This document shows, in pieces, positions 21,001 through 24,000 of a DNA stretch of 64,000 nucleotides (its first letter is position 1; each line of letters starts with the position of its first letter). This stretch comes from Candidatus Azotimanducaceae bacterium. GTDB lineage: Bacteria > Pseudomonadota > Gammaproteobacteria > Pseudomonadales > Azotimanducaceae. The stretch is from assembly GCA_965200505.1 (NCBI GenBank), contig OZ241343.1:841302-905301 (forward strand), in the 5' to 3' direction. A program made the position numbers.

Positions 21001-24000
21001 TTCCCTTCCCAACTGTTGCCGAGCACCACCAGCTCGTCGCCCACGGCAACGCCCAGATTGCGGGCGAGACCGGCGCCCACCGCGGCGTCACCGGCGGACG
21101 CCAAGTAGGTGCCCGCGGTCAAACTCGCGGCGAAATCGGAAACGTTCGGCTCCAACTGCGGATCGACGCCCATCACCTGCGCCCCGAAGCTCCGTTCCTC
21201 GCCGGACGCGCTCATGGCGGAGATCAACGCGAAGGCTTCCGCACGGGGCGCCACGGCCACCACTTCCGGCAAGTCTTCCAAGCGGCGCGTCAACTCGGTG
21301 CCGCCCGGCATCGAGTTGCGGATGCGCGGGTCGTCGTTGTAGCCCGGGTGCTGCACCTGCACGTGGCCGCCGCCAAAGCGGGACCCCAAGTCGATCACGG
21401 CGTCGTAAACGCCGGCCTGGAACGACATGATGAACACCACGATGGCGAGGCCGAAGGCGATGCCACCGGCGGTGAGCCAAGTGCGCCGCGAGTTGCGCCA
21501 CAGGTTGCGCCAAGCGATGACGGCAAAGAGGCCGCGGGCGGCCTTGGCGGCCGGCGCGGAGGTGGTGGGGAGGATGGCTTCCGCCATCTAGCTGGCGCCG
21601 GCTTTGAGCTCGAAGACGGTGAACATTCGGTCTGGCAAGTCGATGTCGAACTCGGCCACGTCGATGATGACGTCCGTCCAATGATCCGGTTCGTCGAGCT
21701 TCTGCATGCGCATCCGCGTGGCCACGTTGCGCCCGCCGACCTCGCGGATTTCCAGCGTGGTCATGCGCTTCAAGAGCGCGAGTTCCTGATCGTAGAAGCG
21801 CTGCTCCAGCATCACGTAGTCGTCACGCAGCACCCACACCTCCTTGCCCCACACCACGGGCGCATCGTCGCGGGGCACCGCGTCGATGGTGTAGATCGTC
21901 CGGCCTTCCTCCTCGCGCCGCTCCACGATCTCCAGTTCGTAGTGCTTGAGCAGCTTGTCGCTGCGCGAGAGGTCGTTGTAGGAGAAATCCGAACCCGCCC
22001 AGCTCTGCGAGCGCATGCTGTAGGGCAGGCGGATGGTGCGGTTCAGCTTGGGCGTGTATGTCCACATGTTGTCGCCCTGCTTCAAGAGGGCGTTGCCGGC
22101 GTCCTTCGCGGGGGCGGTGAAGCGCATCAGGGTGTCTTCGCGGCCGCGGCTCCAAGCGACGATGGAGGTGGAACGCTCCCAGTCCGGGCGCTTGATCTGC
22201 ATCGTCATCTCGGTGTGGGAGGTGTCGCCCCGGGCTTGGTCGAGGGCGGCGGCCACCAGGTCATAGGCGGTGAGCTCGGCTTCCTCCGCGATGACGGTGG
22301 GGGCCGCGGCGAACACCGCGGCGACGGTGGCGATGGCGCGGGCGAAGCCCTTGGCATGAAGCGCTTTCATGGGATGCTTATACACCTAGCCCGCGGCCAT
22401 TGAAAGGCGCACTCGGCCAAGGGCGGACGCATGGTGCCCGGCCGCTTGCGTGCGGCGGGGCGTCAGAGCGGCTGTGGGGAGCGTCTGTGCTAGCATGGCC
22501 GGGATAGGCCAGAACTGCACATGCGAACCGCAGAGACCATACCGGAAGCCTTGCGGGCACCCGCGGCGGCGGCGCTGGCGTGGATCAACGAAGAGCAGCG
22601 GCAGCGTTTTGAGCTGACCGGGCTGGTCGATGTCGAGGACGTCAACGTCGCCGAGCCCTTTGAAATGGGGCTGGTGCTCTGCGACGGTGAAGTCTGCGCA
22701 CGCGAACAGGTGCGTGTGGTGCCCAAGGGCGAGGCATACGATTTCGAGCTCGTCCATCAGGCCGCGCCCGAGATCCCACCGTTGCTCGACCCACCGGCGG
22801 GCATCCGTGCAAACTGGCTGCAGAGCCAGTTGGAGAAGCACGAATTCGTGCTGCTGCTCTTCTATCGCGGGCTGTGGTGACCGCCCTGTCGCTTCGAGTT
22901 GCGAAGCTACGACAAGACCGGCGTCGCGGAAGCGATACGAGCGGCCGGCGGTGAAGTGTTTGGCATCACCAGCGAGCCACACTCACTGGCCAGCGAGGCC
23001 GAATCCGCATGGGACATGAGCATCCCCGTGATCGGCGATCCGCACCACGAGATTCGCCAGAACCTCAAAGAGAGGGGCATGCTGGATGTGTATTACAACG
23101 AGAACTACGGCCATCTGCGGGCGCGTTCGTGGGCCAGCCATCCAAATGGCTACTACCAACCCGCGGTGATCGCCATCGACAAGACCGGCCGCATCCTCTA
23201 TCGCTGGCGCTGTGTGCCCAAGTACAGCAACATGAGCGGCGCCGGTGCCCGTCCATCCGCGGAATACACTTGGGATGCGATTCGCAAAGGGCAGGGGAGC
23301 ACCGAGGATGCGGCGCTTGATCGGACGCCTGAGATGGGAGCCCAGACGCTATCCTGGCCCAAGTTCCTGTTGCTGCTGACGGCACATGGCTGGTTCTTGA
23401 GGCCCAAAGCCTTTCCCCTCACCCGTGCGGGCGACAGGCAGTTTTTCAATCGGGCGGGCATGATGCGGCGCATTTGCGGGTTCGCGGCATTGTGGTTGGT
23501 GCTGCTGATCGTGCTGCCGATCGGCTGGTTCGGGCTCGCCTTGCTGGCTTGGCTCGCGGCGCTGACACCCGGGCTCATTGAAATCCACAGGCAGTTCCAG
23601 CACGAACCTGCCGCGTATTGAATGGCTGCCCGTGCGTAACGGCGACGCAAGGACAAGACATCGGGGCCCCGTGCCTCTGACGGCGTAAACCATGACCAAA
23701 ACCGTTCTGATTACAGGCTGTTCCACCGGCATCGGCCGTCTGGCGGCTCGCACCTTTCAGGCCAACGGGTGGAACGTTGCGGCCACCATGCGGCGCCCGG
23801 AAGCCGAGAGCGAACTGAACGGCTTGGAGAACGCGTTGGTCACTCGCTTGGATGTGACCGATCGGTCAAGCATCGACGGCGCGGTCGCGGAAACGCTCAA
23901 GACGTTCGGTGGCATCAACGCGCTCGTCAACAACGCGGGCTACGGCGGTCATGCGGCATTGGAGCAATCCAGCGACGAATCCGTGCGCGCCATGTTCGAC

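Follow-up and report, generated by a model that had tools for sequence, protein, structure and literature searches.

The stretch examined here, referred to below as the window, comprises 64 kb (64,000 nucleotides) of contig OZ241343.1, positions 841,302 to 905,301 of the forward strand, in the Candidatus Azotimanducaceae bacterium assembly GCA_965200505.1. On the plus strand at 22521–23621 lies a gene for a peroxiredoxin-like (Prx-like) protein with a single internal TGA codon at 22878–22880. Inspection of the open reading frames (ORFs) showed that this TGA links an ORF at 22521–22880 to one at 22881–23621 in one frame. The upstream ORF has an ATG start, encodes 119 aa and terminates in the TGA, beyond which the frame is open up to the TGA at 23619–23621. 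The junction of the two halves reads EFVLLLFYRGLW-TGA-PPCRFELRSYDK. The original prediction had described two ORFs that share a frame and are separated only by this TGA, a second ORF without an ATG, and a 366-aa read-through product with the TGA at the attacking-Cys position of an AhpC/TSA motif. Coordinates and sequence agree with this description: the downstream ORF as mechanically listed starts at a TTG (22899), the frame gives 119 + 1 + 246 residues, and the W-U-P-P-C motif at the junction lies in a region that scores above the cut-off of PF00578. The comparative evidence presented below strongly supports the reading of the internal TGA as selenocysteine (Sec, U), and it is almost certain that the gene encodes a selenoprotein. 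The features that matter most for this reading are the following.

22521–23621, plus strand: predicted complete selenoprotein coding sequence (CDS) of 366 codons plus the terminal TGA stop (23619–23621), from the shared frame and from tblastn over residues 1–366.
22878–22880, plus strand: UGA codon, predicted selenocysteine U120, first residue of the UxxC motif in W-U-P-P-C; TGA in this column in 82/82 sequences and Cys in the homolog P0249/L084.
22887–22889, plus strand: codon of Cys123, the putative resolving Cys of the UxxC motif; invariant in 82/82 sequences, with both TGT and TGC in use.
22891–22907, plus strand: putative bacterial Sec insertion sequence (SECIS) hairpin with a 6-bp stem (22891–22896 / 22902–22907) and the loop AGUUG (22897–22901), from pairing, covariation and frozen codons.

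Conservation of the in-frame TGA

For comparison, 80 loci from genomes of different species were fetched, chosen by two C-terminal peptide patterns that are independent of the TGA. The family alignments comprise these 80 species-genome loci, 82 family sequences and 81 distinct sequences. With tblastn, residues 1–366 were matched in one frame in 80 genomes at 50–67% identity. None of the homologs ends at the internal TGA: it is kept at the same column in 80/80 loci, with the N- and C-parts in one frame and coding conservation on both flanks. Met1 is nearly invariant in the alignment of N-terminal fragments, and W-[TGA]-P-P-C is invariant around the TGA column in all 82 family sequences. In the same 82 sequences all four synonymous codons are in use for Pro121 and Pro122, and the conservation of the TGA is thus not a consequence of low divergence. 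The loci span at least six phyla, with genome labels that include Pseudomonadales/Azotimanducaceae (HTCC2089), Cellvibrionales, Opitutales, Limisphaerales and Bryobacterales as well as Thermoanaerobaculia, Myxococcota, Binatia and Latescibacterota. Some genomes hold two copies of the gene. A Pseudomonadales locus (L063, 10001–12300) has them in tandem, with TGA at 10361 and 11554, and genome CBDBKI01 has them on different contigs (L057 and L060).

The way in which the gene appears in protein collections fits this pattern. When 5.8 billion predicted proteins were searched with the read-through sequence, 407 matches were obtained, nearly all of which are fragments of 201–247 aa that hold only the part after the TGA and lack a common start. 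With the 119-aa N-part as query 302 matches were found, and all 120 matches listed are fragments of 119–167 aa, mostly of about 120 aa. These match lengths are the footprint of a gene that is systematically cut by gene callers at one internal stop. Long shadow ORFs overlap the gene in the window (22386–22982 on the minus strand, 22630–23019 on the plus strand and similar ones), as is typical of DNA with 64% GC, and one metagenome protein (P0274) is a frameshifted translation via such a shadow frame.

Homologs with Cys in place of the TGA are scarce. An exhaustive HMMER scan with residues 121–366 against 1.84 billion cluster representatives returned only 263 relatives. The clearest Cys form is a protein of 392 aa (P0249/L084) that has the full architecture and is 38% identical over 376 aa (E 3e-92). 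It carries WCPPC, so that a Cys, encoded by TGT, aligns with the TGA, which answers a check proposed with the original prediction. Its DNA in this region is TGT CCC CCT TGT CGG TTA GAA CTT TTA AGT and the hairpin is absent. Because the Cys homolog does without it, the hairpin goes with the TGA rather than with the protein sequence. Clean full-length Cys forms are very rare, this protein being the sole case among the matches listed in three protein searches.

A second candidate, P0082/L001, was the only Cys variant of the first protein search and was rejected as a Cys homolog. Its TGC arises because the A of the TGA is deleted, and a 2-nt deletion follows about 45 nt later. The two deletions recode 13 codons (L001 2149–2220, CPPAAPSCGAMLK) and leave the hairpin nucleotides intact. 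The variant is due either to an indel error or to an escape from Sec dependence that happened very recently. Six further proteins (P0330, P0364, P0389, P0334, P0388 and P0284) are distant Cys relatives with FYRGxWCPxC motifs and either CaaX-like tails (CVIV, CSIM, CVIA) or tandem multi-domain repeats. They look eukaryotic (planktonic), and from the CaaX-like tails it seems that other members of the wider family are again tethered to membranes, though by a different means.

The hairpin and the probable decoding of the UGA

The stem sequence GCTTCG (22891–22896) pairs perfectly with CGAAGC (22902–22907) across the loop AGTTG and starts 10 nt past the TGA, as had been predicted. The prediction had also extended the stem by three pairs. 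These are present in the window but only partly conserved across homologs: past the mismatch, two lower pairs are as a rule retained and do not covary, and the third is formed in 44% of the sequences.

The hairpin was examined in an alignment of 82 sequences that starts 9 nt upstream of the TGA and extends 60 nt beyond it. All six stem pairs are standard in all 81 distinct sequences, and compensatory UA-to-CG changes occur at two of the six (29 cells in total), together with GU intermediates. In 500 column shuffles the observed covariation score was never reached. With the 3' partner shifted by 1–3 columns, pairing fell from 93% to 23–55%. RNAalifold returned the same stem. The covarying changes also alter the protein, since F125 is switched to S, L or R together with a change of S129 to G; the RNA structure therefore dictates the permitted amino acids. 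Codon usage points in the same direction. Among the 79 degenerate residues that are conserved, with a median of 1.83 bits, codons 124–129 have the smallest synonymous entropies; R124 is CGC and E126 is GAG in 82/82 sequences, L127 is only TTA or TTG, and S129 is AGC in 72/74. In the loop consensus of the family, AGUUR, the G-U typical of bacterial SECIS loops is present. Judged by these comparative data, which go far beyond chance, the hairpin at 22891–22907 is a selected RNA element.

The classical bacterial SECIS, that of Escherichia coli fdhF, begins about 10–11 nt after the UGA, and the spacing found here is 10 nt. Both hairpins lie within the CDS soon after the UGA and have G-U in a small apical loop. 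The present hairpin differs by its shorter stem of 6 bp, by the lack of an evident bulged U in the conserved stem and by the loop AGUUR in place of GGUC.

Three results weigh against decoding of the UGA as Sec with the aid of this hairpin. Folded as a single sequence, the hairpin gave z-scores of −1.4 and −1.67, with 12–22 of 200 shuffled sequences folding as well. It is thus not significantly stabler than shuffled sequence, and because shuffles often give an equally stable fold the case rests on the comparison across genomes. Further, no SECIS-type family of Rfam was found in a gathering-threshold scan of the window or in a permissive scan of 22840–22960; the scans returned only a tRNA-Leu and a chance pseudoknot match. 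Finally, searches by tblastn with E. coli SelA, SelB and SelD and a tRNA scan detected none of selA, selB, selD and tRNA-Sec within the window, and tblastn with the same three proteins gave no match in the flanks of the loci outside Opitutales. We infer that the source genome has Sec capacity.

The situation in Opitutales is different from that in the window. In four Opitutales genomes (L070, L071, L074 and L080; about 10001–16991) the gene is tail-to-tail with a selB-selA-selD-tRNA-Sec cluster, which follows downstream on the opposite strand within about 100 nt and whose tRNA-Sec has the anticodon UCA. In three of them, all but L080, the cluster beside the gene is intact. The arrangement could be a transferable cassette consisting of the Sec trait plus a client. 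In L080 (14505–16991) selD is split by an IS3-like element of about 1.27 kb with transposase ORFs at 15221–15538 and 15349–16413; selB, selA, tRNA-Sec and the TGA in the Prx-like gene are retained. This genome may recently have lost Sec synthesis or may have a second selD elsewhere.

In view of these data, three other explanations of the internal TGA can be considered. In the first, the UGA is decoded as a standard amino acid such as Cys or Trp, either through a tRNA-Sec-like tRNA charged with Cys, which is a conceivable decoding route, or after loss of the Sec machinery. This would be compatible with a source genome whose Sec machinery is inferred and with the L080 locus, where the TGA is kept beside an interrupted selD. 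It would leave unexplained why a SelB-type hairpin is conserved and covaries at the canonical spacing, and why intact selB, selA, selD and tRNA-Sec (UCA) genes stand beside the gene in the three other Opitutales genomes. The family has also been classed independently as a selenoprotein family (PMC2398784). We consider this explanation very unlikely. TGA is an ordinary stop elsewhere in the window, where it terminates 13 of 28 long ORFs with high GC content at third codon positions as well as the 22521–23621 gene itself, and a scan of the window for other selenoprotein candidates with an in-frame TGA gave nothing convincing.

In the second explanation, which has a smaller chance still of being correct, the TGA really terminates translation. 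The locus would in that case consist of two small genes, one encoding 119 aa and the other about 221–240 aa from TTG 22899 or a later ATG, or it would be a broken pseudogene. Gene callers do annotate two ORFs, both in the source assembly and in hundreds of metagenomes, and the lack of sel genes in the window would agree with this. However, a stop at this position would cut through a thioredoxin fold, leaving strand β1 on one side and the active-site helix on the other, precisely where W-x-P-P-C has its nucleophile. The downstream fragment lacks a conserved start, as seen from its called lengths of 201–247 aa, the Cys ortholog is contiguous across the site, and the hairpin is selected at synonymous sites. 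Maintenance of the TGA, the frame and both flanks in 80/80 genomes from several phyla is incompatible with a pseudogene, and the same conservation excludes a base-call error. The third explanation, a sequencing or assembly error for TGC or TGT in an ordinary Cys protein, is accordingly hardly credible: nothing specific favors it, the TGC of the L001 metagenome contig being the product of the two deletions described above, and an identical N-fragment ends at the TGA on several independent assemblies, besides the TGA in 80/80 other genomes.

Protein architecture and known relatives

Decoding of the UGA as Sec would yield a product of three modules. AlphaFold2 models were made of the two halves separately (residues 1–119 and 121–366); strand β1 and the active site are never in one model. 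The predicted elements are the following.

22521–22775, plus strand: N-terminal domain, about residues 1–85, a helix on a four-stranded antiparallel sheet, with Cys54 (22680–22682) and Cys59 (22695–22697), modelled with AlphaFold2.
22824–23201, plus strand: AhpC/TSA domain, thioredoxin-fold and PrxQ/BCP-like, residues 102–227, from Pfam and Foldseek.
23355–23384, plus strand: short amphipathic helix, residues 279–288, followed by a conserved HGWFxRPxxFPL motif, from AlphaFold2 and conservation.
23451–23594, plus strand: hydrophobic helical hairpin, residues 311–331 and 334–358, predicted membrane anchor, followed by a conserved PGLIEIHRQFQNEP tail, from AlphaFold2, hydropathy and conservation.

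In the model of residues 1–119 (pLDDT 82) a helix at 9–26 packs on the sheet at 31–77. Foldseek gave only weak cystatin- or monellin-like matches for this domain (E 0.14), and no match was found in Pfam, NCBIfam or PDB sequences. Cys54 and Cys59, part of a LCDGExC motif (CxxxxC), do not vary among 121 N-fragments. When the TGA is translated as Cys, PF00578 (AhpC/TSA) matches residues 102–227 with 38.1 bits against a cut-off of 26 (E 1.7e-9), and PF08534 (Redoxin) scores 27.1 bits against a cut-off of 26.6. The model of residues 121–366 (pLDDT 77) has PrxQ/BCP peroxiredoxins as its best Foldseek matches, with probabilities of 0.98–0.99 and target-normalised TM-scores of 0.5–0.58. Sequence searches of the PDB gave no significant match, either with the single sequence or with profiles of either half.

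The two C-terminal hydrophobic helices that had been predicted are recovered as the helical hairpin in the model, which has the shorter amphipathic helix in addition. Residues 312–356 form the only stretch above the Kyte–Doolittle hydropathy threshold, and the C-terminal tail is not covered by a Pfam or NCBIfam model. The protein lacks a signal peptide and has clustered Arg residues ahead of its first hydrophobic helix. Since the ends of the hairpin would also be on the same side, the soluble domains are most likely cytoplasmic and tethered at the inner membrane by the helical hairpin.

The closest solved folds to the modelled residues 121–366 are those of PrxQ/BCP peroxiredoxins, such as Xanthomonas campestris PrxQ (3gkn, 5iow) and Sulfolobus Bcp4 (3hjp), but at an identity of only 10–17% and E values of about 0.07–0.1. 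PrxQ proteins have neither the N-domain nor a membrane anchor, and their PxxxTxxC motif is replaced here by WUPPC, with Sec at the position of the Thr and Cys at that of the peroxidatic Cys. The local sequence, F-Y-R-G-L-W-U-P-P-C, thus deviates from the PxxxT/SxxC peroxidatic motif of classical peroxiredoxins by having Sec at the Thr/Ser position, and peroxidase activity is not implied. Because WUPPC is thioredoxin-like and true peroxiredoxins have Thr where this protein would have Sec, the UxxC center is more likely that of a thiol-disulfide-type oxidoreductase than that of a classical Thr-x-x-Cys peroxidase. The only NCBIfam match was to the SelL-related redox protein family (NF040769), a distant Prx-like redox family that shares the thioredoxin fold and a U/C-x-x-U/C motif, but the score of 19.3 bits is far below the cut-off of 120 and excludes membership.

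Prx-like proteins with a UxxC motif are an established class of predicted selenoproteins (Zhang, Fomenko and Gladyshev 2005, PMC1088965; PMC2398784; PMC13188914), and a 2026 review grades the "Prx-like thiol:disulfide oxidoreductase" as "predicted with high confidence" (PMC13188914). Reads of the present family, written with U, are found under "#Prx-like 1" in Dataset S1 of the Global Ocean Sampling (GOS) selenoproteome of Zhang and Gladyshev 2008 (PMC2398784), among them JCVI_READ_1056998 with the N-domain, JCVI_READ_3057796 with the C-tail, and 1093017755384. These orthologs share the N-domain, the WUPPCRFELRSY motif and the C-tail, and with "Prx-like 1" in general the protein has in common the AhpC/TSA fold (PF00578), UxxC instead of TxxC or TxxU, and a SECIS just downstream. 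By sequence comparison, the gene is orthologous to published "Prx-like 1" selenoproteins, which have been public since 2008.

The "Prx-like 1" bin is heterogeneous, however, and includes many small single-domain or secreted UxxC proteins (PMC2398784). Compared to the rest of it, the present subfamily adds an N-domain of about 85 aa with CxxxxC, inserted segments within the redoxin domain and a membrane hairpin at the C-terminus, and it almost never occurs in Cys form. The main text of PMC2398784 does not discuss the architecture, and the stored text of its fusion figure is without motifs of this family. A text search of the literature for the WUPPC motif gave no relevant main-text match, and neither a curated model nor, in the literature searched, a description of the three-module architecture was found. 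The claim that the architecture is undescribed therefore has to be narrowed: the family was listed as selenoproteins in Dataset S1, but its architecture was left undiscussed and its N-domain and tail are without a Pfam or NCBIfam model. Seemingly uncharacterised so far are the three-module membrane-anchored architecture, the near-absence of Cys forms and the linkage to the sel cluster in Opitutales.

The genes around the locus in the window are, by their Pfam labels, two MacB_PCD/FtsX-type ABC permease genes and a TP_0789-like (LolA-like) gene on the minus strand (19009–22385), and a short-chain dehydrogenase (SDR) gene on the plus strand (23692–24531). The sole tRNA of the window is a tRNA-Leu (CAG) at 2861–2947 on the plus strand. 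Among the loci, no conserved gene neighbourhood was found beyond shadow ORFs, an SDR gene lying downstream in only about 12 of them, and because no neighbour is conserved there is no hint from that side at the substrate.

Proposed mechanism and significance

The mechanism that we propose follows established bacterial Sec biology. The UGA at 22878–22880 would be decoded as selenocysteine during translation of one product of 366 residues. The hairpin at 22891–22907, inside the CDS and 10 nt downstream of the UGA, would act as a bacterial SECIS that recruits SelB-GTP-Sec-tRNA(Sec) to the ribosome. The product would consist of an N-terminal α+β domain with CxxxxC, a PrxQ-like domain with the W-U120-P-P-C123 motif, and a C-terminal helical hairpin as tether. 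Its UxxC center most likely cycles between the selenol/thiol and the selenenylsulfide form.

The finding opens no new class of system. Its practical meaning lies in annotation, because public databases show this gene, like hundreds of its orthologs, as two separate "hypothetical proteins" without a domain match. No Pfam or NCBIfam model joins the halves, and a curated model with the Sec position would fix this recurrent mis-annotation, which affects marine Pseudomonadales, Opitutales and other groups. The F125 and S129 switches make the family a clear case from nature in which a SECIS constrains the protein encoded by the same nucleotides. As a selenoprotein with almost no Cys counterpart, it is also useful for asking why Sec is retained.

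A broader interpretation can be put forward tentatively, since we would rate it as possible but somewhat less than evenly probable. The sequences could represent a distinct, essentially Sec-obligate family of membrane-tethered proteins that has spread by horizontal transfer across at least six phyla, among aerobic bacteria of sea and soil. Of its three modules, the first would be a cystatin-like domain with CxxxxC, the second a WUPPC redoxin in which His-rich motifs are invariant, and the third an anchor in the form of a helical hairpin. If this is true, the protein may be a principal client that keeps the Sec trait in Opitutales, as suggested by the physical coupling of its gene to the whole Sec machinery in that group, and its membrane-proximal substrate would be new among selenoproteins.

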